64,000 bases of DNA, taken from NCBI GenBank assembly GCA_034530615.2, contig JAVRCV020000049.1:253459-317458 (forward strand), written 5' to 3'. The notes under the pieces were generated by a model. That model saw nothing but the letters and a program-made list of their open reading frames with translations, was not told where the DNA came from and made no database searches. The translations under genes and the position numbers were made by a program. Below are positions 7,901 to 63,000 of this stretch, piece after piece. Within the stretch, counting starts at the first letter, position 1, and the number at the start of each line of letters is the position of its first letter. Source of the stretch: Aulosira sp. ZfuVER01 (lineage in GTDB: Bacteria > Cyanobacteriota > Cyanobacteriia > Cyanobacteriales > Nostocaceae).

Positions 7901-8868
7901 AACCCTAGCTGAGTGACTTCTACCTTGGCAATAAAAATTGCCCGTACTAATAGCACTACTAGAGCATAAATAATTACTGCTGCTGGTAAGTTGATGCCTA
8001 CACTAATTCGGCTACTACTTTCACTTGGTGAAGCTTCTGGAGCTTTTTGCCGATGGTAGCGATGGTGATAAATAGTAATGATAGTTGTGCCGATTGTTGC
8101 CAAATACACGGCAATTAAGGGAAAGCCTGGTAATTTCCAACCCCAATTGAGGAAAGATAGCCCCAGAATATTTACTAGTAATAATTTATCAGTGCGTAAA
8201 TTAGTAGAAAATAGGCGATTACTGAAGAGTAAAACAGTTATAGCTGTTAGTACAGGAGCTGCGATCGCAACTGCAATCCAATCCAAAGGATTCTGCCACA
8301 ACTTGAAGCTATCCATTGCCCAGAAGTTTACTGGTACTAACAACAGCGTCACCAGCAGCAATGTTTGCGCCGTTAATCTCAAGTTGTTTTGTTTAGCAGC
8401 CCAAAAGCCAAAACCCCAAAAACTTAAGGTATAAGCAAATAAAACCCCATACTGTCCAGAGGCGGGAAACTTCTCCCACTGGCTTGCGGCTAGTACCCCA
8501 GAAGATACCACCACCAGAAATACCCCTAAAAACAGCAGCCAGCGGACACTCAATTCCGCCCCCAACGACTGCAACATTGTAGTGACAAAGTTGGGTTTTG
8601 CTGGTTCTGCGGGTGGGAGTTTGCGGCTACGGGATTTTAGAGGTGCTTCCTGTAACATTTCTACAGGTAATTGTTTTACCGGATCGGAAGTTGCTTTAGC
8701 TACCTGTGGTTGCAGTACCACCGGACACACCAAAAATTCTTGGCAAATCTGCCTAACTTGGGCATCCGAGATCAAACCTAAACGCAACCATAGATCTAGC
8801 CCTTCTAATAGCTGAGGATGGGAAGATGGCAACCTGATTTCAAATTTTAGCGGGCGATCGGGTAACAT
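4921..8868 (-). CDS. Large polytopic membrane protein (DUF2157-like)
   Basis: 1315 aa with many hydrophobic helices. N-terminal WLRLGLIS..Q and WLLFLGVFLVVVSS motifs. Confidence 0.75.
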   Translation of the reverse strand: MLPDRPLKFEIRLPSSHPQLLEGLDLWLRLGLISDAQVRQICQEFLVCPVVLQPQVAKATSDPVKQLPVEMLQEAPLKSRSRKLPPAEPAKPNFVTTMLQSLGAELSVRWLLFLGVFLVVVSSGVLAASQWEKFPASGQYGVLFAYTLSFWGFGFWAAKQNNLRLTAQTLLLVTLLLVPVNFWAMDSFKLWQNPLDWIAVAIAAPVLTAITVLLFSNRLFSTNLRTDKLLLVNILGLSFLNWGWKLPGFPLIAVYLATIGTTIITIYHHRYHRQKAPEASPSESSSRISVGINLPAAVIIYALVVLLVRAIFIAKVEVTQLGLAIGICGWLMTWLAQREVKEQGAGEAVSSSPLSPSSSSSFLIWERLGSVLLFLGWLVAVTNYPWQAIAVSGLSLQFVGSRLQRYSLQTDLAAVFAIGLQTIWLGWRLVPASVQEGAIAFGTQLTKSQNEPWALLSVALFPYIIFIVALTDRFYRAQKRDLGEFGEMLALMLGTVLTTIALVNPTLRSLNLLFSTITLAVVTKRRFDREERQRESSPLLYLTHIMAVLTLCSIVNWLLPSLGREIWASILLVLMVVEWGYSLSSGIWRRSAWHIGLALAFVSFALFWVNAETSWFGVVRSYHHWGIIWLVTPLTLTGIASRTTAQRRTISTSLSILAVGVAQLLTLQLPGTRLIGLAVATVLMFANTRYLQYQISAAITIGFGLSFIGVLLWEGIPGLAKLSLAGWFIVGAIATLSLWLGRTALIRQGSELTTIYAAASDKWAIALCSVELFLLTIHSLVVYQGTVAPGWLYLTAIAINLVAITYRSWGQPSNWAFYGIGWCLELLIAELLGFWGRSVVNMAIANIALGLSTQILGEWWRRRYQTQRLKSSLHILPLMYAALSVLLRLQTFEDWTGLCSLGVALIVIGVGRRQESFKPLLYLGLIGVSISAYELLFYQMSQAKGGAYGDGLIAMAALGTSIMYAYRILSPWLLDYLGLTRQQLNSIAHLHWAWSSFLLLTAISAPIQVNRLLGLGTGVVLIQYAIFQGRGASASSRILGGITIAEMWVYLGLLQVAAIRIYWRETIVGHLITGPLIPWNGAIACVVAYFLYILPWENWGWPKRPWQTAAYIIPLIILAETSLKVYPITLAIAACYYIFLAKVGNNIRFTYISVVLIDWALFRWFYDLRLTDSLWYVTVIGLSLLYIAQIDPLLRLPESKAARHSLRMFASGLICGWAIIFNQDTALIPGIFSLIAIFAGLGLRIRAFLYIGTAAFLITSIYQLVIFSLRYPFLKWVVGLFVGIVLISIAANFETRRAQISSLLRNTNDEFHHWE

Positions 8869-52382: not shown

Positions 52383-52823
52383 TCAAAATTGAGTGACAGT
52401 CACACTAATACCAGAATCAAGTTTAGGCACTTTTAAATATTCAATTGGTTCGCTGCTTCGAGGAGGCGGAGTTTGATTATTATTTAGCTGCTGACATTTC
52501 TCAAACGCAGCCCCTGGATTTTCCAAGAAATCCAAAGGATTCATTTTTTGACATCCTTGCTCCTGCACTACTGTAATTTTGGTGTTCGTGGGGATGAGAT
52601 TATTATTTGGTTGGATGATGACATTTTTCCAATCACTATTAATCGTTACAGGTTCTGTGAGTAAATTAGCTGCTTGATTCAAATCATCGGTGGTAGGTAA
52701 TATAACAGCAGGCACATTGGGTTTTATCCTTGTGGGTAATAGATTTTCTTGTTGAGCATAAGCACTGTTGTTTCCGGCGATCGCACTGATGATAACTAAC
52801 AATAATAAGAGCGAATATTTCAT
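52383..52823 (-). CDS. Exported hypothetical protein
   Basis: Signal peptide (AYAQ), Cys pair and C-terminal IEYLKVPKLDSG...F. Confidence 0.7.
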   Translation of the reverse strand: MKYSLLLLLVIISAIAGNNSAYAQQENLLPTRIKPNVPAVILPTTDDLNQAANLLTEPVTINSDWKNVIIQPNNNLIPTNTKITVVQEQGCQKMNPLDFLENPGAAFEKCQQLNNNQTPPPRSSEPIEYLKVPKLDSGISVTVTQF

Positions 52824-53001
52824 ACTTTAAACTCTCAAAAATTAATGGGAATTTATCTTAGTCTCTTTGTGGTAAAAGAATAATTTTTGCAATACAAAGA
52901 CACAGAGACACAAAGAAGAAATGTATTTCAGTATAGTTATAGCAAAAATAGCTCATATTAAGTAGAATAAAATCTTTTTGTAAAAATACAATACGATTAC
53001 T

Positions 53002-53242
53002 AACTTCACATTCCGCTACAACACCACTATTTTTTTCCGTAATCGCGTAACCTGAAACAGTATTCATTAATTATTTTCATTTTTATAAGTGAATGCTGCT
53101 AACGATCGCCACCACACACTCCCCAGCAACGGAGTTAGGCTACTTACTACATAAACACCCAGACCGTTGTCAGTCGTTTTCTTTGACGTTTGGACAAGCG
53201 CAGGTTCACAGTCTAGGTGTTTTATGGTATGCAGGGATATAA
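53002..53242 (+). pseudogene. Truncated duplicate of the hen1 5' region (upstream ~90 bp + first 38 codons)
   Basis: ATG 53093 gives MLLTIATTHSPATELGYLLHKHPDRCQSFSLTFGQAQV, then unrelated sequence with stop at 53242. Matches 56177..56385. Confidence 0.92.
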
Positions 53243-53274
53243 ACTGCTTTGTGTGTATGATTCTAGGGTCTTGT

Positions 53275-56004
53275 TTAGCCTTGCATTAATGCTTTAAACC
53301 GTTCATCATTTCTGATGCTGTCAAAATCAGGATTAGTTTTTGCTTCACTACGACATCGGGAAGGATTGAGATTTATTGCTTGTTGCAAGTTTTCAATTGT
53401 TAGCTCAATGTTTCCTTGCAAAGCGTAACAGCAAGCTTTGCCATAATGACCACTCTCATCATTAGGTTGTAGTTCTAGCGCTTTGTCACAACTAGCTATT
53501 GCCTCTTGGTAGCGACCTGCGCGAGCTAGTACAATACCTTGATTAGCCCACCATAGAGCATATTTTGGTTGAATTTTCACGGCTTCATTGATATTTGCCA
53601 GCGCTTCATCATAATGCCCTAAAAAACTCAGGGTTAAACTCTTAGAACTCAAATAACCTGGTTCATTTGCTCTAATATTTAACGCTATATTATAGCTAGC
53701 TAATGCTTCCTCATAACGCTTTAAATCGTTCAGTACATTGCCTCGATTGGCCCATGTGTTAGGGTATTCATCTTTAATTGCCAAAGCTTTGTCAAAGTTA
53801 GCTAATGCTTCCTCATAACGCTCTAAATTCGCCAGTGCATAGCCTCGATTTGACCATGCTGCTGGGTAGTCATCTTTAATTGCTAAAGCTTTTTCAAAGC
53901 TAGCTAATGCTTCCTCATAACGCTGTAACTTTAATAGCACAGCACCCCGTTTATTCCAGATTTCAGGAAAGTCATCTTTGATTGCCAAAGCTTTTTCATG
54001 GTTAGCCAAAGCCTCTTCGTATTCTCCCAATTCATATAGCCAATCACTGACATCTAAAAATAGACTACTGCTGAATTCAGGATGAGTATCAGTAGAAATA
54101 AGTTCAGCTTGCTCAATTGCTCGAAGTAGCAAATCTTTTCTTTGGCTAGGGTGGCTTCTCAGGGATTTATATAAAAGCCCAGCGTACTTACCCAGCCCAT
54201 CTTTCAAAAAGTCAACTTGATTTAAACAAGGTCTTAATACTGCTTCTAACTCTTCCTTAGAGGGGCCAGTCCCATTTTCGTAGTTCATTTCATATTGAGA
54301 TGGTTCATTTTCTAACATTACCCAACTAAAAAGAAAACCCAATGTTGTGCTTTTCAAAAACTTTTCAGTCGCATCGGGTAAGAGCTGATAATTCTCTACT
54401 GTTGCTTCGGCGATCACTGCTACAAAAGGAATAAATACTACTTCAATTTGCTTGAGATAGCGAGAAGCAAACAAATGGAAAATAAATTGACGCTGACCCT
54501 CATCCCTTCTAGCAAAAAGAGCATGATAGAGAAATTCAGCAGTGTATTTTCTCCAATCAGAATTTTCGTATTTTTCTGGTTCAGGGCTATCAACAGCAAC
54601 TTCCTGGTTTGCCCTTCCCTCATAATATATGGCTAGTAACTCATGAGTTGCACGAAATTCCGTTTTATCATCTTGATAAAATGAAAGTCGAAAAACATTA
54701 CGAGCCACATCATCCAAGCGATACTGACCTTGAACAAACTCAACAAAATCGCACTTTGTTAGCCAATCAAAACAGTTGAGAGTCGCATAAGCACCCGTTT
54801 CAAAATCTATTCCTTGTTTTTGCATTAAATACTCAATCAACGACCTATCAAACCAACGACAACAAGCTGCTAATTGCACTATCTGCTTTTGCTTTATACT
54901 CAGTCCTTGCAGTAGTAGTTCAGTAATCGCTTGGTTCCCACGAGAAAAATCAATATTTCTATTTGCTTCTTTCTCTCGTTTAATCCAGTTGAGATAGTAA
55001 GGTAAACCTTTAGTTGCTTTATATATTTTATGAATTTCACCAGATTTAGTAATGCCGATATGCTGAAGATATTCTTTTGTCTGTTCTTTATTGAATTCAT
55101 CTAGTCGTTGTTCATAAATCAAATCCCGATCCTGCTGCAATTTCCGCCAACTTTCTTTCTCAAGTACAGAACGCCGTCCTGCTACCACAATGCGAACAGG
55201 ATAAGATTTTAAAGCCGTATCTTCTAATAAATACTGCCACAGCCAAGTGTCAATATCTGATGGTGCTTTTTCATAGGTATCTAGAATCAGCACAATTGAG
55301 TGCTTTTGCTTTTGAGCTTTCTGTATCAAACCTTGAGCAAAGGCATGAGTTAACTTAGGTATTGGTTCCAGCATTAACTCCTGAAGTTCTTTGTTATTCT
55401 TGGTTGCTGGATGCTGTTGCAATAGTTCTTGCATACGCTCTTTACTTGATTTAAGCGCTTGTGGTGCATCCGATAACATTCCTCCGGCCTTAACCGCAGC
55501 ATCCAGACCTAAACTTAATGCTGTTCCGGGATCTCCCAAGTATCCTGCACTTGTTGCTAGTAGCATTCCTGTGCCTAATTCAAGCCAATCTTTAACTGTA
55601 TTTTGTTGTTGTGTATCAACTGATTTACCTTGAACAGGTTCAGTTTTTAGCTTGTAAAAAGTATCGTGATATCGCTCATAAAGTGATGTAAACGGGTCTG
55701 GTTTAGGTAAGATATCCCTTCGTAAAAGTCCCGTAGGTTTAGGTAATAGCTCATAAAGCTTTTCCATTAACTTCAATGGCGTTTCGATACCTGGTGTAAG
55801 ACCAAAAGACACTACTGCAAAGTCAGCTTGCGACTCGTGCATCTCTTGTAGTTTGTTGGTAAGGGTAGTTTTGCCAACTCCTCCAAACCCATAAACCTGA
55901 AACAAAAGTGAGTTAGACTCTGGAGATTCCAACGCCTTAGCAAATTTAGTGAAAAAGTCCTTGGCTTGCTGGCGAGAGATGTAAGGAGGTTTCTGATTAC
56001 TCAT
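53275..56004 (-). CDS. STAND-like P-loop NTPase with C-terminal TPR array
   Basis: Walker A GFGGVGKTT, Walker B VLILDTYE, VVAGR, GLPYYL (GxP), then ~7 TPRs ending YGKACCYALQG...PDFDSIRNDERF. Confidence 0.85.
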   Translation of the reverse strand: MSNQKPPYISRQQAKDFFTKFAKALESPESNSLLFQVYGFGGVGKTTLTNKLQEMHESQADFAVVSFGLTPGIETPLKLMEKLYELLPKPTGLLRRDILPKPDPFTSLYERYHDTFYKLKTEPVQGKSVDTQQQNTVKDWLELGTGMLLATSAGYLGDPGTALSLGLDAAVKAGGMLSDAPQALKSSKERMQELLQQHPATKNNKELQELMLEPIPKLTHAFAQGLIQKAQKQKHSIVLILDTYEKAPSDIDTWLWQYLLEDTALKSYPVRIVVAGRRSVLEKESWRKLQQDRDLIYEQRLDEFNKEQTKEYLQHIGITKSGEIHKIYKATKGLPYYLNWIKREKEANRNIDFSRGNQAITELLLQGLSIKQKQIVQLAACCRWFDRSLIEYLMQKQGIDFETGAYATLNCFDWLTKCDFVEFVQGQYRLDDVARNVFRLSFYQDDKTEFRATHELLAIYYEGRANQEVAVDSPEPEKYENSDWRKYTAEFLYHALFARRDEGQRQFIFHLFASRYLKQIEVVFIPFVAVIAEATVENYQLLPDATEKFLKSTTLGFLFSWVMLENEPSQYEMNYENGTGPSKEELEAVLRPCLNQVDFLKDGLGKYAGLLYKSLRSHPSQRKDLLLRAIEQAELISTDTHPEFSSSLFLDVSDWLYELGEYEEALANHEKALAIKDDFPEIWNKRGAVLLKLQRYEEALASFEKALAIKDDYPAAWSNRGYALANLERYEEALANFDKALAIKDEYPNTWANRGNVLNDLKRYEEALASYNIALNIRANEPGYLSSKSLTLSFLGHYDEALANINEAVKIQPKYALWWANQGIVLARAGRYQEAIASCDKALELQPNDESGHYGKACCYALQGNIELTIENLQQAINLNPSRCRSEAKTNPDFDSIRNDERFKALMQG

Positions 56005-56271
56005 TTAGTCTTGGAAATACTGGAATGCTTGTATAAGATTTTAGCCAGTATTAATCTAATTCAGCATCTTTAAAATCATCTCTTTTAAGCAATTGTTTAA
56101 AAGCGAGATTGAATCGTCGTAATTTTTAATCTTACATTTGATACCAAACGATCACCCTTTCCCCTTTCCAAGCACAAACTTCATATTCCTCAACAACACC
56201 GTTATTTATTTCCGTAATCGCTTACGCTAAAGCGGTATTCATCAACTATTCGCATATCTCCATACCAGTGA

Positions 56272-57654
56272 ATGCTGCTTACCATCACCACCACACACTC
56301 TCCAGCAACGGAGTTAGGCTACCTGTTACATAAACACCCAGACCGTTGTCAGTCTTTTTCTTTGACGTTTGGACAGGCGCACGTTTTCTACCCGGAAGCG
56401 AAACCAGAAAGCTGTACGGCGGCGTTGCTGTTAGATGTCGATCCGGTGAAGTTAGTGCGGGGAAAGGGTGCTAGGCTAGAACAGTATGTAAGCGATCGCC
56501 CTTATGTTGCTTCTTCATTTTTGAGTGTTGCGATCGCGCAAGTATTTAGCACTGCATTGTCAGGTCGTTGCAAAGATAAACCAGAACTTGCGCAAACTCC
56601 CATTCCTTTAGTTGTAAAAATCTCTGTCTTACCTTGTCGTGGTGGTGAAAGTTTTCTGCGCCAACTATTTGAACCGTTGGGTTACACAGTAAATGCCCAA
56701 AGCCACACCTTAGATGAGGAATTTCCTGATTGGGGACAGAGCAAATATTTTACGGTAGAACTGCAACACACCATACCACTCAGCGATTTATTGAGTCATC
56801 TTTATGTGTTAATTCCGGTGTTGGATGACGATAAACATTACTGGGTCAACGAGGATGAAATAGAAAAGTTACTGCGTCATGGTGAAGGTTGGTTAAGTCA
56901 ACATCCAGCGCGATCGCAAATTACCAGGCGTTACCTCAAGCGCCAGCATCGCTTAACTCGTGAAGCTTTAGCCCAACTCGCAGAAGAAGACAATCCAGAC
57001 CCGGATAGCGCTGAAGAAAGTCATGCTGAGGAAGAAGCGGCGGTAGAAAAGCCCATTAGCTTGAATCAGCAGCGGATGAATGCTGTAATTGCTGCTTTGA
57101 AAAAAAGTAATGCCAAGCAAGTAATTGATTTAGGTTGCGGTCAAGGTAATCTCGTTAAAAGTTTACTCCAAGATACCTTTTTTGAAAAAATTACAGGCGT
57201 AGATGTTTCCTACAGGGCATTAGAAATTGCTCAAGAAAGATTAGACCGTCTACGCCTTCCCCGCAATCAATGGGAACGTTTGCAACTAATTCAAGGCGCG
57301 CTTACCTATCAAGATAAACGCCTCAAAGGGTATGATGCTGCTACAGTAATTGAAGTAATTGAGCATCTTGATTTACCGCGTTTGGGAGCATTTGAGCGAG
57401 TTTTATTTGAGTTTGCACGTCCAAAAACAGTAGTAGTAACAACACCAAATATTGAGTACAACGTTAAATTTGAAAACCTCCCCGCTGGCAAACTGCGACA
57501 TAAAGACCACCGCTTTGAATGGACACGGTTAGAGTTTCAAGATTGGGGAAATAAAGTAGCAGAAAGATTTGGCTATGCTGTGGAGTTTCAATCTGTAGGG
57601 ATGGAAGATGTAGAAGTTGGTTCACCTACACAGATGGCGGTGTTTAGTTGTTAG
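56272..57654 (+). CDS. hen1: 3'-terminal RNA ribose 2'-O-methyltransferase Hen1
   Basis: N-terminal ligase-activating domain (LGYLLHKHP, YVSDRPY, KHYWV). MTase VIDLGCGQG, EVIEH, RHKDHRFEWTR. Confidence 0.95.
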   Translation: MLLTITTTHSPATELGYLLHKHPDRCQSFSLTFGQAHVFYPEAKPESCTAALLLDVDPVKLVRGKGARLEQYVSDRPYVASSFLSVAIAQVFSTALSGRCKDKPELAQTPIPLVVKISVLPCRGGESFLRQLFEPLGYTVNAQSHTLDEEFPDWGQSKYFTVELQHTIPLSDLLSHLYVLIPVLDDDKHYWVNEDEIEKLLRHGEGWLSQHPARSQITRRYLKRQHRLTREALAQLAEEDNPDPDSAEESHAEEEAAVEKPISLNQQRMNAVIAALKKSNAKQVIDLGCGQGNLVKSLLQDTFFEKITGVDVSYRALEIAQERLDRLRLPRNQWERLQLIQGALTYQDKRLKGYDAATVIEVIEHLDLPRLGAFERVLFEFARPKTVVVTTPNIEYNVKFENLPAGKLRHKDHRFEWTRLEFQDWGNKVAERFGYAVEFQSVGMEDVEVGSPTQMAVFSC

Positions 57655-57678
57655 AAATTTTTTCGTAACCCCAGATGA

Positions 57679-58128
57679 ATGGAAGCAATTATATTTATAG
57701 GTATCCAAGGAGCAGGTAAGTCTACTTTTTATCGCGATCGCTTCTTTAATACTCACATCCGCATTAACCTAGATATGCTCAAAACTCGCCATCGCGAGCA
57801 AATTATTTTTCAGGCTTGTTTGGAAGCTAAACAGCCTTTTGTTATCGATAACACTAATCCAACTATCGAGGAGAGAAGACGTTACATTACACCCGCTAAA
57901 GAGAAATACTTTCGGGTTGTGGGTTACTACTTTCAAGCTGTATTAGAAGATTGTAAGCAACGCAACAAACAAAGACCGCCGGAACAAATTATTCCTTTAG
58001 TAGGGCTATTAGCAACTTATAAAAAATTAGTTGTGCCGAGTTGGGAAGAAGGATTTGATGCAATTTATGTAGTGAAACCTGATTTAAATTATTCATTTAT
58101 TGTTGAGGAATGGAAGCGTGAAATTTGA
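57679..58128 (+). CDS. Small P-loop kinase (AAA_33 / polynucleotide-kinase-like)
   Basis: IFIGIQGAGKSTF, INLD, VIDNTN...R, C..RN..R. Confidence 0.85.
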   Translation: MEAIIFIGIQGAGKSTFYRDRFFNTHIRINLDMLKTRHREQIIFQACLEAKQPFVIDNTNPTIEERRRYITPAKEKYFRVVGYYFQAVLEDCKQRNKQRPPEQIIPLVGLLATYKKLVVPSWEEGFDAIYVVKPDLNYSFIVEEWKREI

Positions 58129-58882
58129 TGAACTTGATAGCAGGATGCGAATATTTGAAACAGCACACGACCATTGTGTGTTACCTGGACTGTATATTGT
58201 TGCCAGATTAGATGGACGCGGCTTTACCCGACTAACAAAAGAAGTGCATCAATTTGAGGCTCCTTTTGATACCCGCTTTCGGGATTTGATGGTGGAAACA
58301 GTCGAACATTTGATGAATTGCGGCATCGATATAATTTATGGGTATACCCAAAGTGATGAAATCTCTCTACTTTTTGCTCACAACGAAAACACCTTCAGTC
58401 GTAAATTAAGAAAACTCGACTCAGTTTTAGCAGGTGAAGCCAGCGCCAAATTTTCAGTATTGTTAGGTTCTTTAGGCTGTTTTGATTGTCGAATTTCTCA
58501 GCTTCCTAATACAGAAGAAGTAGTAAATTATTTTCGTTGGCGAAATGAGGATGCTCATCGAAATGCACTGAATGCTCATTGCTATTGGTGTTTGCGTCGA
58601 GATGGGAAAAATACTACAACAGCAACCAGCATGATGAAAGGGTTATCTGTTGCTGATAAAAACGAATTGTTATTTCAACATGGGATTAATTTTAATCAGC
58701 TTCCCAACTGGCATAAACGCGGTGTAGGGCTTTATTGGGAAGAATACGAAAAGCAAGGATTTAACCCCATCAAAGGTGAAATTGTCCCAGCATTGCGACG
58801 ACGCATCAAACGAGATTTCGACTTACCAATGAAAGATGAATACAGCCAATTTATTGCCGAACTAGTCAGCGCAAAACCATAA
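58118..58882 (+). CDS. Thg1-like protein (tRNA-His guanylyltransferase family 3'-5' polymerase)
   Basis: ARLDGRGF, YTQSDEISL, FDCR, YFRWRNEDAHRNALN, GINFN.LP.W.KRG. GTG start overlaps the kinase end. Confidence 0.93.
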   Translation: MKFDELDSRMRIFETAHDHCVLPGLYIVARLDGRGFTRLTKEVHQFEAPFDTRFRDLMVETVEHLMNCGIDIIYGYTQSDEISLLFAHNENTFSRKLRKLDSVLAGEASAKFSVLLGSLGCFDCRISQLPNTEEVVNYFRWRNEDAHRNALNAHCYWCLRRDGKNTTTATSMMKGLSVADKNELLFQHGINFNQLPNWHKRGVGLYWEEYEKQGFNPIKGEIVPALRRRIKRDFDLPMKDEYSQFIAELVSAKP

Positions 58883-58948
58883 ATAAAACTCCGCGTACCT
58901 TTGCGCTTACTCTGCGCTCCTTTGCGTTAAAAAAACCAATTATCTAAT

Positions 58949-61597
58949 ATGAAAATTACTATCCCCGAACTTTCTCTCATTGTCCTTATCGGTGCTTCTG
59001 GTTCCGGTAAATCAACCTTTGCTCGCAAGCATTTTCAACCTTTTGAAGTTTTATCTTCAGACTTTTGTCGCGGCTTGGTTTCTAATGATGAAAATAATCA
59101 ATCTGTTTCTGGTGATGCTTTTGCAGTGCTGCACTTTATCACCGCCAAGCGACTAGCCGCAGGTAAATTAACTGTGGTTGATGCTACCAACGTGCAAATG
59201 GAAGACCGCAAACATTTGCTACAAATGGCACGAGATTATCATTGTTTTGCGATCGCAGTCGTTCTCGACCTACCAGAAGAATTATGTCACGAACGCAACC
59301 AACAAAGAAGCGATCGCAATTTTGGTTCCCATGTCGTGCGTCGTCATACCCAAATGTTGCGGCGTTCTCTACGCGGTTTAGAAAAGGAAGGCTTCCGCTA
59401 TGTCTACACTCTCAAATCTCTGGAGGAAATAGACTCAGTTGAAATCGAACGTCAACCGCTGTGGAACAACCTAAAACACGAACACGGCCCCTTTGATATC
59501 ATCGGTGACATTCACGGCTGTGGGGATGAACTCGAAGCATTGTTGCAACAGTTAGGGTATGTGAAAAGCAAAGGGGACAAGGGGGACAGGGGGGACAAGG
59601 AAGAATTTGCTACCTCATCTTCCCACACTCCCCACACTCCCCACACTCCCCCCTCTCCCCTCTGGAATGCACCCACCTACCACCATCCCCAAGGACGGAA
59701 AGCTGTGTTTCTTGGGGATCTGGTAGACCGAGGCCCCCGGATATTAGATACAGTCAAGTTAGTCCGGAATATGGTGATAGCGGGTACAGCTATCTGCGTT
59801 CCTGGTAATCATGAAAACAAGCTGTTGCGGAAACTACGCGGTAAGAATGTCCGAGTTAATCATGGGTTAGAGCAAACTTTGCAGGAGATTGAAGCGTTAC
59901 CTGATGCAGTGCGGGAACCCTTTACTCAAGAACTGCAAGAATTTTTAGATTCCCTAGTCAGTCATTACCTCCTTGATGGTGGGCGGTTAGTCGTAGCCCA
60001 CGCTGGGATGAAACAAGAAATGCAAGGGCGGGGTTCTGGTGCGGTGCGGGAGTTCGCGCTGTATGGCGAAAGTACAGGGGAAATTGATGAATTTGGCTTA
60101 CCCGTGCGCTACAACTGGGCGGGTGAGTACCGGGGTGAAGCAATGGTGGTATACGGACATACCCCTGTACCTGAGGCGGAATGGCTGAATAATACTATTG
60201 ATATTGATACAGGTTGCGTCTTTGGCGGTAAATTAACTGCGCTGCGCTATCCTGAAAGGGAATTGGTGAGTATACCTGCGGCGCGTACTTACTGCGAACC
60301 GATTAAACCTTTGGTGCAAAACACCTTTACCCGCACATCTCAGCAAGAACTGGATGATGTTTTGCACATTGAAGATGTATTAGGTAAGCGCATTATTAAC
60401 ACTCGACTGCAATCTAACATTACCATTCGCGAAGAAAATGCGATCGCAGCTTTAGAAGTAATGAGCCGGTTTGCAGCTAATCCCAAATGGTTGATTTACT
60501 TACCTCCTACCATGTCCCCGGTAGCGACATCCTCATTACCAGGATTGTTAGAACATCCTGCACAAGCTTTTAACTATTACCAAAGCCAAGAAATTACTGA
60601 GGTTGTATGCGAAGAAAAACACATGGGTTCGCGAGCAATAGTAATTGTTTGCCGAGATGTGGCTGCTGCACAGAAACGTTTTGGTGTGGTAGATGAAGGT
60701 ATCGGTATCTGCTACACCCGCACTGGAAGGCGATTTTTTGACGAGCCAGCACTGGAAACAGAACTCTTAGCGCGGGTAAATGCAGCCCTCTCTGCAAGCG
60801 GCTTTTGGGAAACATTTAATACCGACTGGGTATGTTTAGATTGTGAATTAATGCCTTGGTCAGCGAAAGCGCAGGGATTATTGCGATCGCAGTATGCACC
60901 TGTAGGAGTAGCATCACGCTTTGCTCTTAATGATGCCGTATCTTTGTTACAACAAGCAAGCGATCGCGGTGTAGACGTTACCAGCCAACTCAGCCACTAC
61001 CAACAACGCGCAGAGATGGCGCATCAATATGTTGCAGCTTATCGCCGTTACTGCTGGTCTGTCACCGATATTTCTCAGTTAAAGCTAGCTCCTTTCCACA
61101 TCCTAGCAACAGAGGGAGCCGTGCATATTGATAAAGACCACCGTTGGCACATGGAACAAGCCGCCAAAATTTGCCAAGCAGATCCATCTTTACTCCTAGC
61201 TACTGCTTACAAAGTCATCGATTTAACAGATCCTAGCAGCCAAGCTGAGGGAGTTCATTGGTGGGAAGAACTTACCAAAGCCGGGGGAGAAGGAATGGTA
61301 GTCAAACCTATGCAATACATTGTTCAAGGTAGCCGGGGGATTGTGCAACCTGCGGTGAAATGTCGCGGACAGGAATATCTGCGAATCATCTACGGCCCCG
61401 AATACTCCAGCCCAGAGAATCTGCAACGCCTGCGTCAAAGGGGGTTATCTCTCAAACGTTCTCTAGCCATGCGCGAATTTGCTCTAGGTGTGGAAGCCTT
61501 AGAGCGATTTGTCAACAATACCCCACTCCGCCGTGTCCATGAATGCGTTTTCGGCATTTTAGCGTTAGAGAGCGAACCAGTCGATCCGCGACTTTAA
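58949..61597 (+). CDS. pnkp: Polynucleotide kinase-phosphatase-ligase Pnkp
   Basis: Kinase GASGSGKS. Metallophosphatase GDIHG/GDLVDRG/GNHE/GHTP. Ligase EEKHMGSR, EGMVVKP, KCRG. Confidence 0.95.
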   Translation: MKITIPELSLIVLIGASGSGKSTFARKHFQPFEVLSSDFCRGLVSNDENNQSVSGDAFAVLHFITAKRLAAGKLTVVDATNVQMEDRKHLLQMARDYHCFAIAVVLDLPEELCHERNQQRSDRNFGSHVVRRHTQMLRRSLRGLEKEGFRYVYTLKSLEEIDSVEIERQPLWNNLKHEHGPFDIIGDIHGCGDELEALLQQLGYVKSKGDKGDRGDKEEFATSSSHTPHTPHTPPSPLWNAPTYHHPQGRKAVFLGDLVDRGPRILDTVKLVRNMVIAGTAICVPGNHENKLLRKLRGKNVRVNHGLEQTLQEIEALPDAVREPFTQELQEFLDSLVSHYLLDGGRLVVAHAGMKQEMQGRGSGAVREFALYGESTGEIDEFGLPVRYNWAGEYRGEAMVVYGHTPVPEAEWLNNTIDIDTGCVFGGKLTALRYPERELVSIPAARTYCEPIKPLVQNTFTRTSQQELDDVLHIEDVLGKRIINTRLQSNITIREENAIAALEVMSRFAANPKWLIYLPPTMSPVATSSLPGLLEHPAQAFNYYQSQEITEVVCEEKHMGSRAIVIVCRDVAAAQKRFGVVDEGIGICYTRTGRRFFDEPALETELLARVNAALSASGFWETFNTDWVCLDCELMPWSAKAQGLLRSQYAPVGVASRFALNDAVSLLQQASDRGVDVTSQLSHYQQRAEMAHQYVAAYRRYCWSVTDISQLKLAPFHILATEGAVHIDKDHRWHMEQAAKICQADPSLLLATAYKVIDLTDPSSQAEGVHWWEELTKAGGEGMVVKPMQYIVQGSRGIVQPAVKCRGQEYLRIIYGPEYSSPENLQRLRQRGLSLKRSLAMREFALGVEALERFVNNTPLRRVHECVFGILALESEPVDPRL
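59571..59661. repeat. In-frame STRR-derived insertion in pnkp
   Basis: (AGGGGGACA)n and (CCCCACACT)n encoding KGDKGDRGDK...HTPHTPHTP. Confidence 0.85.
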
Positions 61598-61848
61598 TGC
61601 ATCGGCCTGTAATGCGATCGGATTGTTTGACGGATATCTTCCCAATCTTGAACAGTCATTTCTGTTGCATCTCCAGAATTTAATCCTTCCAGAAGTATTG
61701 TTTCAGGATATTCTTTAGCTCTTTGTTTTTGGTCTTGTCGCACTAATGCACAAAAATACTCGCTAACACTGCTGTAACCACCTTGAGCTACCTGCTCTTC
61801 CACATAAGCTCGCATTGTGTCAGGTAAAAAAATATTTATTCTTTTCAC
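61594..61848 (-). CDS. Type II antitoxin, ParD-like RHH (no toxin adjacent)
   Basis: INIFLP..MRAYVEEQVAQGGYSSVSEY...LVRQDQ...LLEGLNSG...DWEDIR. Confidence 0.82.
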   Translation of the reverse strand: MKRINIFLPDTMRAYVEEQVAQGGYSSVSEYFCALVRQDQKQRAKEYPETILLEGLNSGDATEMTVQDWEDIRQTIRSHYRPMH

Positions 61849-61900
61849 AAGAGTTCATATCTTGAATATGTTTTTCTACATTCTGGCAGTTTTTGCCATT

Positions 61901-62452
61901 TTAGGTTATGGAAAAAGAAGATGGAATAAGCGATAATAAAAACTTAATAATTTCTTGTATTAATGGATGTTGTTGTAATATATTAATTTCTTTCTCATTT
62001 ATATTGCTAAATATTCTTGAATTTATTTGCTTATTATTGCCAAATACTGTCTCTAAAAAATTTTTAGGATTTCTTTGTGCTAACTGCCATTCTAAATCAT
62101 TGAATTGGCATTTTGCTAGTTGTTCAATGAATAATTTATCTTGTAAAAATACGGTTTCTAATTCAGGAATTGCTAGAAAAAGTTGATAAGGGATTCCAGA
62201 TGATGCCTGATTTAATACATAATTGATTAAATCATACCTTTCAAATATTTGAGATTCGTTATCTGTATCTGCATCTAAGACAAGAGCAACAGGTGTTTTA
62301 CGAGTAGCAAGAAGAGAACTAGCTAAAGAACGCGCTCTATAAGAACTTTCACCAGGTATAAATTGGATATCTTGACTCAGATTTTTTGGCAATAATCTCT
62401 GTAAAATTTCTATATCTCTATTATCTTCTGTAATTATATATGCTAGTGTCAT
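61901..62452 (-). CDS. Hypothetical protein with TOPRIM-like acidic motifs
   Basis: YIITEDNRD...LVLDADTD...PELE. Coupled by an ATGA overlap to the upstream REase. Confidence 0.6.
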   Translation of the reverse strand: MTLAYIITEDNRDIEILQRLLPKNLSQDIQFIPGESSYRARSLASSLLATRKTPVALVLDADTDNESQIFERYDLINYVLNQASSGIPYQLFLAIPELETVFLQDKLFIEQLAKCQFNDLEWQLAQRNPKNFLETVFGNNKQINSRIFSNINEKEINILQQHPLIQEIIKFLLSLIPSSFSIT

Positions 62453-63000
62453 GGAATAATCTCCGTTGTAATGTCGTAGTTAGGGATACAATTTTGAACA
62501 CAAAAACGATATTTTTTGACTAGAAATTTACATATACATTTATTTGTTAGTGAATATTCAATTTCTTGCCCTCCCCACAATAAAATAGTTTGAGGTGCTA
62601 CAAATCCAGTTAATGTTACTGCTGCTTCTGTAAATCCACTGCGACTAAAAACACTACCAATAGCTGTAGCTGGCCTTCGTAATAATTGATTTCGTAGCTT
62701 TGCTATGGGTTCAATATTAACTTCTTTAGTTTCATCCTTACATTCGATCAAACAGGCTAGGCTGTCTGTATATACCACTCCGTCAATTTGTTCTACTATT
62801 GTATCTTGAATTTTTACACTATAAGGCCAAGCCACTTCAGCGCCATCAAGTTGGAAGGTGCGTAAAACTAAATATTCTAATGCTTTACCTTTATCCCAAA
62901 AGTTTGAGGTGTCTTTTGCTTTAATTTCTGACCATAATATAATTAAGTCATCCCAGTCATAAGTGATAATTCTTGCTTGATATTCTGCATCTGTAGTCAT
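62449..63000 (-). CDS. Mrr-like PD-(D/E)XK restriction endonuclease-fold protein
   Basis: GKALE.L...F, EQIDG, LIECKD, V.IEPI.KL, SRSGFT.AA. Confidence 0.82.
   Translation of the reverse strand: MTTDAEYQARIITYDWDDLIILWSEIKAKDTSNFWDKGKALEYLVLRTFQLDGAEVAWPYSVKIQDTIVEQIDGVVYTDSLACLIECKDETKEVNIEPIAKLRNQLLRRPATAIGSVFSRSGFTEAAVTLTGFVAPQTILLWGGQEIEYSLTNKCICKFLVKKYRFCVQNCIPNYDITTEIIP

Follow-up and report, generated by a model that had tools for sequence, protein, structure and literature searches.

A kinase and Thg1-like protein gene pair between hen1 and pnkp in a predicted RNA-damage operon of Aulosira sp. ZfuVER01 and its relatives

We analysed a 64,000-nucleotide stretch of the cyanobacterium Aulosira sp. 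ZfuVER01 (contig JAVRCV020000049.1, positions 253,459 to 317,458 of the forward strand), hereafter the window, whose host genome comprises 8.03 Mb in 83 contigs. The open reading frame (ORF) list of the window places four genes, all on the plus strand, at positions 56272–61597: hen1, a gene for a small P-loop kinase, a gene for a Thg1-like protein (TLP) and pnkp. A gap of 24 nt separates hen1 from the kinase gene, the kinase and TLP genes overlap by 11 nt (TLP start GTG at 58118), and 66 nt lie between the TLP gene and pnkp; hen1 and pnkp are on one strand with 1294 nt between them, an interval that holds two genes. A sequence-only reading of this DNA had described four co-oriented genes with intact catalytic motifs. 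Its coordinates and spacings (24, −11 and 66 nt) were reproduced exactly by the ORF list, the catalytic motifs of kinase and TLP either match those of solved enzymes in alignment or do not vary across 75 aligned rows, and all four genes are intact. A consensus scan found no promoter-like sites on the plus strand within the cluster and only weak terminator-like matches, which lie inside coding sequence. Judging from the spacing, the four genes would be co-transcribed.

Family matches of all four products far exceed chance. The two outer genes encode the proteins of a Pnkp–Hen1 system. Hen1 (56272–57654, 460 amino acids) is a predicted RNA 3′-terminal ribose 2′-O-methyltransferase with an N-terminal Pnkp-ligase-activating domain; it matches TIGR04074 with 750 bits (cut-off 340) and Hen1_L with 400 bits over residues 1–237, followed by methyltransferase domains over residues 266–425. 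Both domains that define Hen1 of this system, the ligase-activating N-terminus and the C-terminal methyltransferase, are thereby present. Hen1 proteins methylate the 2′-OH at the repair junction. Pnkp (58949–61597, 882 amino acids) is a predicted trifunctional kinase, 2′,3′-phosphatase and ligase, matching TIGR04075 with 1469 bits (cut-off 750) over model positions 1–851. It carries kinase, metallophosphoesterase and ligase domains in one chain: AAA_33 at residues 10–141 (99.8 bits), Metallophos at 181–408 (43.6 bits) and PNKP_ligase at 500–877 (625 bits). The 5′-OH is an end chemistry that Pnkp also handles. A low-complexity insert, KGDKGDRGDKEE...HTPHTPHTPPSP, lies in the phosphatase module at ∼59564–59668 (residues ∼206–240), between GDIHGC and GDLVDRGP. 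Two sub-threshold matches to miRNA models at 59572–59661 fall inside this insert, where the DNA is hairpin-like, and were taken as chance matches.

The small kinase gene (57679–58128, 149 amino acids) encodes a candidate P-loop polynucleotide 5′-OH kinase and is translationally coupled to the TLP gene. Its product matches AAA_33 with 53 bits and, among solved structures, is closest to the mouse PNKP kinase domain (3u7g; 46.8 bits, E 3e-11); next after mammalian PNKP comes the kinase domain of Clostridium thermocellum Pnkp (CthPnk, 4gp7) with 27.6 bits. The stretches GIQGAGKST, INLD and VIDNTNP align with mouse PNKP, and the residues G8, G13, K14, D32, T36, R37, D57, N58, T59, N60, R66 and R99 are invariant in 75 relatives, with R95 nearly so. 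We take these to represent the Walker A loop, the catalytic Asp, the DNTN-type motif and the RxxxR lid arginines. Against the NCBIfam equivalogs the protein scores 44.6 bits, far under the cut-off of 502.8, so it is by domain and motifs that it would belong to the polynucleotide 5′-OH kinase family. The sequence-only reading had assigned it to 5′-OH ends, and every polynucleotide-kinase motif is indeed present, the activity itself being a prediction from sequence. Mammalian PNKP prefers 5′ ends that are recessed in duplex. Such a preference, if shared by the small kinase, would be apt for truncated stems and would account for the presence of another kinase next to that of Pnkp.

The TLP gene (58118–58882, 254 amino acids from GTG) encodes a candidate templated 3′–5′ RNA polymerase. 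Its frame opens at TTG 58100; GTG 58118, with GAGGA 8 nt before it, yields an N-terminus (MKFDELD) that is common to all relatives. Matches to Thg1 (PF04446, 117.5 bits) and Thg1C (PF14413, 62.2 bits) are both over their cut-offs. The best solved relative is the TLP of Methanosarcina acetivorans (5axk, 119.5 bits), compared with 92 bits for human Thg1 and 77.9 bits for the TLP of Bacillus thuringiensis (4kgk). The metal-binding carboxylates coincide in alignment with those of 5axk and 3otb, and among 75 relatives D32, S79 and E81 are invariant and D80 nearly invariant, in motifs that are presumably RLDGR and SDE. The stretch HRNALNAH aligns with HINNLYN of human Thg1, which we take to be the motif of that name. 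The protein is thus of the TLP type rather than the eukaryotic Thg1 type, and it is the sole Thg1-family match in the whole genome. Whether tRNA-His of this genome already encodes G-1, a question raised by the sequence-only reading, was answered with ARAGORN: the genome has 74 tRNA genes, two of them for tRNA-His, and both encode G-1 opposite C73. Maturation of tRNA-His therefore does not depend on TLP.

Scanning prokaryotes at one genome for each species gave 279 TLP relatives; the best 80 were retained and their loci typed by tblastn, the four proteins of the window serving as queries. Nearest to the window are the TLP loci of Nostoc sp. 106C (97% identity) and T09 (94%). All four genes in the same order were present at 23 of the 80 loci, and five more held the four-gene arrangement in partial form or cut by a contig end. 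Kinase and TLP only were found at 25 loci, the same pair beside Hen1 or Pnkp fragments at five, TLP alone at 17 and other contexts at five. The four-gene loci come mostly from heterocystous cyanobacteria and once from an unclassified bacterium (L078), in which the order is Hen1-kinase-TLP-Pnkp-RtcA. The neighbourhood survey proposed by the sequence-only reading thus found the arrangement to be widely recurrent, and it is not an accident of one genome. As in the known Thg1–polynucleotide kinase neighbourhood, the TLP gene immediately follows a co-oriented kinase gene; of the 58 loci whose kinase gene is complete, 54 keep the 11-nt overlap, including loci from Chloroflexota, Bacteroidota, Planctomycetota, Acidobacteriota, Verrucomicrobiota and Pseudomonadota. 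At one four-gene locus (L023, a metagenome-assembled genome of Heteroscytonema crispum), the TLP gene at 8001–8770 has one in-frame stop, at codon 90, and is either a pseudogene or the product of an assembly error.

On a tree of these TLPs, the four-gene loci are spread across the heterocystous clade, from Nostocaceae to a deep Rivulariaceae branch, and are interleaved with pair-only and remnant-bearing loci. The latter (L004, L006, L011, L014 and L017) have kept the kinase–TLP pair together with remnants of Hen1 or Pnkp. Starred branches force at least eight changes of state on the tree. Because of this interleaving, the simplest reading is that the four-gene arrangement is old and has been eroded repeatedly, Hen1 and Pnkp being lost and kinase–TLP kept.

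We also examined an even sample of 401 genomes of the same order, 76 of which had a Thg1 match and 65 a Hen1_L match. By hand count, 31 genomes had both TLP and Hen1 matches, where ∼12 would be expected if the two were independent, a comparison confounded by kinship and genome size. The sample covers 75 TLP places (74 plus the window locus; fragmentary matches in G324 and G340 were left out), whose contexts were determined by tblastn with Hen1, Pnkp, kinase, TLP, RlaP, one RNA ligase, HD-Pnk and RtcA as queries, and by Pfam on selected neighbours. The kinase gene is directly upstream of the TLP gene in 54 of the 75 places. The order Hen1-kinase-TLP-Pnkp occurs in four places; Pnkp-kinase-TLP in two (L090 and L151; in the complete genome G125, hen1 lies 2.5 Mb away from it); RlaP-RlaP-unknown-kinase-TLP-RNA ligase in two (L136 and L145); and RlaP-TLP-RlaP in three (L114, L124 and L150), while 64 places have no recognised repair neighbour. 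The Pnkp-kinase-TLP order (L090, 879–4909, and L151) comes from one cyanobacterial genus and involves a TLP that falls in the other deep clade, and in L151 the TLP gene is interrupted by ∼1.2 kb.

Outside cyanobacteria, four loci in all, L078 among them, link TLP to RNA repair genes. A locus of Limisphaerales (L070) has the order RlaP-kinase-TLP-RNA ligase-HD-Pnk; L077 has the same order with an extra ORF of 456 amino acids between ligase and HD-Pnk; and in Thermoguttaceae (L063) the TLP gene is followed by two unknown ORFs and Pnkp. Altogether, TLP genes adjoin RNA-repair genes in at least six configurations besides that of the window. A second TLP tree comprises two deep clades, split by a long, fully supported branch, and repair contexts occur in both, which argues that TLP and RNA ligase systems were brought together on several occasions, in varying gene orders and with ligases of three kinds. 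By these neighbourhoods the kinase–TLP pair is a separable module that stands mostly alone and whose conserved partners, where it has them, are RNA repair genes.

The interval between hen1 and pnkp was then viewed from the side of hen1. The even sample contains 54 full-length hen1 places, of which 52 were covered (G263:C313 and G361:C208 were left out). In all 38 loci with both genes, hen1 is upstream of pnkp. At 24 loci pnkp lies within 1 kb of hen1 with nothing recognised between them; kinase–TLP occupies the interval at four and RlaP at five, and at another five it holds ≥ 1 kb of other DNA. Thirteen loci had no pnkp in the examined DNA, three of these being limited by the contig or the extent of DNA, and one had a Pnkp fragment upstream of hen1. 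RlaP is intact at three of its five loci (L089, 7869–8624, Pfam 181.8 bits; L181 and L196) and a remnant at two (L186 and L189). No kinase or TLP remnants were found in the larger hen1–pnkp gaps of loci without an insert; one gap held RlaP. RlaP and kinase–TLP also occur together, at L070, L077, L136 and L145.

The function of RlaP gives this shared position its interest. A December 2025 preprint reports that RlaP adds one to two nucleotides to the 3′-OH of damaged RNA, that it is required if over-damaged tRNA is to regain function, and that the nucleotides are restored before repair and ligation (Carruthers, Fatma and Huang, 2025; PMC12776372). According to passages of a 2021 review (PMC7824862), some anticodon nucleases, e.g. 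RloC, excise a nucleotide, and RlaP is predicted to put it back ahead of ligation; the review names Thg1 as the 5′-end counterpart of RlaP. By analogy, kinase–TLP would be the 5′-side counterpart of RlaP, occupying the same hen1–pnkp slot. This placement is the strongest support in our data for the idea that gapped RNA is repaired.

The surroundings of the four genes in the window contain several further features. A candidate promoter or operator motif, ATTTCCGTAATCGCTTACGCTAAAGCGGTATTCAT, lies at 56208–56242 on the plus strand (∼35 nt, ∼30–65 nt 5′ of the hen1 start). Its core, TTTCCGTAATCGCTT...GAAGCGGTATT, is common to most rows of an alignment of 21 hen1 upstream regions (alignment A4); the motif has no Rfam match, and its RNA fold is not significant against shuffles (z −1.44). 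A diverged copy of 56184–56395, i.e. of the hen1 upstream region and the first ∼118 nt of hen1, is located 3.2 kb upstream (53002–53212, plus strand, ∼210 bp). This remnant has a Hen1_L fragment match at 53093–53206 (54 bits) and in a pairwise alignment is 83% identical to the live hen1 region over all columns, with higher identity in the 210-bp core. The two leader copies flank a divergent STAND/KAP NTPase–TPR gene (53275–56004, minus strand). The nearest relatives (L002 and L003) have hen1 upstream regions similar to this remnant, and the live hen1 leader and the NTPase N-terminus resemble L013/L106 (80% amino acid identity); this resemblance to different relatives suggests that a recombinational replacement brought in the NTPase–TPR gene. 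On the 3′ side, three minus-strand ORFs at 61594–63000 are convergent with pnkp: a ParD/RHH-like ORF of 84 amino acids, which overlaps the pnkp stop by 4 nt, and two ORFs of 183 amino acids each, one unknown and one Mrr_cat-like nuclease. The G+C content falls to ∼0.31–0.34 across this segment, in which PADLOC recognises no defence system. TPR genes flank the four-gene cluster of the window too. For the locus itself PADLOC recognised no known defence system, reporting Hen1 as a generic methyltransferase match and two neighbours as weak matches, and an Rfam scan of 52800–62300 found nothing meaningful.

How does this locus compare with known systems? The Pnkp and Hen1 of Anabaena variabilis, from the same lineage, are already in use as a biochemical model. 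Like the Pnkp–Hen1 systems of Clostridium thermocellum and A. variabilis, the locus has a full-length Hen1 and a trifunctional Pnkp, at about twice the equivalog cut-offs, with hen1 upstream of pnkp on one strand; unlike them, it has two extra genes between hen1 and pnkp. In passages of Wang et al. (2015; PMC4411300), where AvaHen1 is named, pnkp and hen1 are described as always being in one operon, and intervening genes are not mentioned there. The same paper describes a Pnkp1–Rnl–Hen1 system, which resembles the present case in showing that splitting and added subunits are compatible with the Pnkp/Hen1 theme, but in which the ligase is split from Pnkp and a polymerase is lacking, whereas Pnkp here is of the classical fused form.

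The pairing of a P-loop kinase gene with a Thg1-family gene directly downstream is likewise known. Passages of Anantharaman, Iyer and Aravind (2010; PMC2904730) describe Thg1–polynucleotide kinase as the most persistent bacterial neighbourhood, predict that the kinase supplies the 5′-phosphate for Thg1 in a tRNA repair role, and note occasional RNA ligase and MACRO neighbours. The form embedded between Hen1 and Pnkp is absent from these passages and from the supplement, in which Nostoc, Anabaena and Hen1 each occur zero times. RlaP operons share with the window a nucleotide-adding accessory enzyme inside an RNA ligase operon. The enzymes differ: RlaP has a Pol-beta fold and adds one to two untemplated nucleotides at a 3′-OH (PMC12776372), whereas TLP is templated, acts at 5′ ends and needs a 5′-phosphate.

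Bacterial TLPs have been studied in vitro since ∼2010. The characterized TLPs (5axk and 4kgk) share the fold family and the aligned catalytic carboxylates with the protein of the window. Templated 5′-end repair of truncated tRNA by the TLP family has been shown in vitro (PMC4820378 and PMC3061083). As the words kinase, operon and ligase never occur in a 2019 review of TLPs (PMC6471195), the TLPs studied so far have apparently been examined apart from any kinase or ligase partner. Thg1, Pnkp and Hen1 were found together in no paper of the literature searched, which left out Burroughs and Aravind (2016), a possible earlier showing. By this comparison, the link of Thg1, kinase and ligase, predicted in 2010, is already known, and the Hen1/Pnkp-embedded form is apparently new.

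Our reading of these data, which we consider probable, is that the locus is a modular RNA-damage operon, i.e. a Hen1–Pnkp system with an inserted kinase–TLP pair, in which two separable modules, each found alone in many genomes, would be co-expressed and share a pool of damaged RNA, kinase–TLP rebuilding those 5′ ends that bear a 5′-OH. We infer each step of the following mechanism. The small kinase would place a phosphate on the 5′-OH end; TLP would activate this 5′-phosphate with ATP or GTP and refill the missing 5′ nucleotides by copying the paired strand, e.g. in a tRNA acceptor stem; and Pnkp would heal the 3′ end and seal nicks, while Hen1 would 2′-O-methylate the junction. The modules would be co-expressed here because both serve the same damaged RNAs. 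For TLPs, activation of a 5′-phosphate with ATP or GTP and the 3′–5′ addition of Watson–Crick-templated nucleotides are described in PMC4820378 and PMC3061083. Given the near-universal coupling of TLP to a 5′-OH kinase, its natural substrates would arrive with a 5′-OH. Such an end would be the mark of transesterifying nucleases, and not of RNase P or 5′ exonucleases, whose products carry a 5′-phosphate.

Several observations weigh against this reading. TLP and Hen1 adjoin in only four of the 31 genomes that have both, and in the complete genomes G052, G125, G169 and G278 they are 1.4–4.7 Mb apart. Hen1, Pnkp, RlaP or RNA ligase adjoins TLP in only 11 of the 75 places of the even sample, a count that is a lower bound because RtcB and divergent ligases were left out of the queries. 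At five Rivulariaceae-type loci (L046, L047, L048, L054 and L075), opposite-strand TPR genes separate TLP from pnkp, joined in three of them by an inserted RTX-repeat gene, so that these loci are not one operon. The relatives are not independent samples, and the Nostocales counts may trace to one ancestral event. As Pnkp carries an intact kinase domain of its own, its chemistry does not require the small kinase. Finally, TLPs depend on a template, and classic ribotoxins cut in unpaired anticodon loops. A gap in a loop would offer TLP no template, which favours separable modules over an obligate machine.

A bolder reading, which we put forward tentatively, takes the hen1–pnkp gap as a slot for interchangeable nucleotide-restoring add-ons, kinase–TLP for the 5′ side and RlaP for the 3′ side. 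The four proteins would then carry out true gap-filling: the end is phosphorylated, extended 3′–5′ over the excised nucleotides, sealed and 2′-O-methylated.

It is unlikely, in our view, that the four proteins form an obligate machine in which kinase and TLP dock on Pnkp–Hen1 and pass the refilled 5′ end to the Pnkp ligase. The module does sit exactly and closely spaced between hen1 and pnkp at the 23 four-gene loci, the distant L078 keeps the same order, Pnkp adjoins kinase–TLP in G125 even where hen1 is far away, and RlaP in the same slot is reported to act before ligation (PMC12776372). However, kinase–TLP is far more often alone than with Pnkp; when the cluster erodes it is kinase–TLP that survives, with Hen1 and Pnkp decaying; the operon is split in Rivulariaceae; and TLP would lack a template at a loop gap. 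The sequence-only reading had proposed an expanded repair machine that acts on gapped rather than merely nicked RNA. The part on gapped RNA fits the presence of RlaP in the same slot, and the single four-component machine is unsupported, kinase–TLP usually occurring without Pnkp and Hen1. Prediction of a kinase–TLP complex, with a 75-row alignment for each protein, scored 0.00 against a mark of 0.32, and carries no weight for or against binding.

We are similarly doubtful that the arrangement is a historical accident, in which kinase–TLP serves routine tRNA 5′-end quality control, landed once between hen1 and pnkp in a heterocystous ancestor and was then inherited. A single insertion could explain the four-gene loci of Nostocales, 27 of the 31 genomes that carry both modules have them unlinked, and solitary pairs adjoin unrelated genes (for a DUF1565 beta-helix protein, TspO and solute-binding proteins). 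Against this, adjacency to RNA-repair genes recurs across the two deep TLP clades, with varied gene orders and three ligase types, and the strict coupling to a 5′-OH kinase would fit nuclease damage rather than the 5′-phosphate products of RNase P or exonucleases. That TLP matures tRNA-His by adding G-1, like eukaryotic Thg1, is very improbable and was rejected in spite of the Thg1 family match and the in vitro addition of G-1 opposite C73 by TLPs noted in passages of PMC6471195, because both tRNA-His genes already encode G-1 with C73; moreover, the best solved relative is an archaeal TLP and not eukaryotic Thg1, HRNALNAH aligns with what we take to be the HINNLYN motif of human Thg1, and an RNase P product would need no kinase partner.

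The modular RNA-damage operon that we favour, together with its relatives, puts a TLP and its dedicated kinase into the RNA repair operon that is best understood in bacteria. As Pnkp and Hen1 of the same lineage serve as a model, it can be tested directly whether kinase–TLP widens the range of damage that Pnkp–Hen1 fixes, and the individual tractability of the parts gives the locus clear experimental value. The parallel with RlaP suggests a general second layer of RNA repair, in which lost nucleotides are restored and ends are not just rejoined. If gap-filling proves true, bacterial TLPs would gain a long-sought physiological role, and RNA repair would gain a templated reverse-polymerase step.

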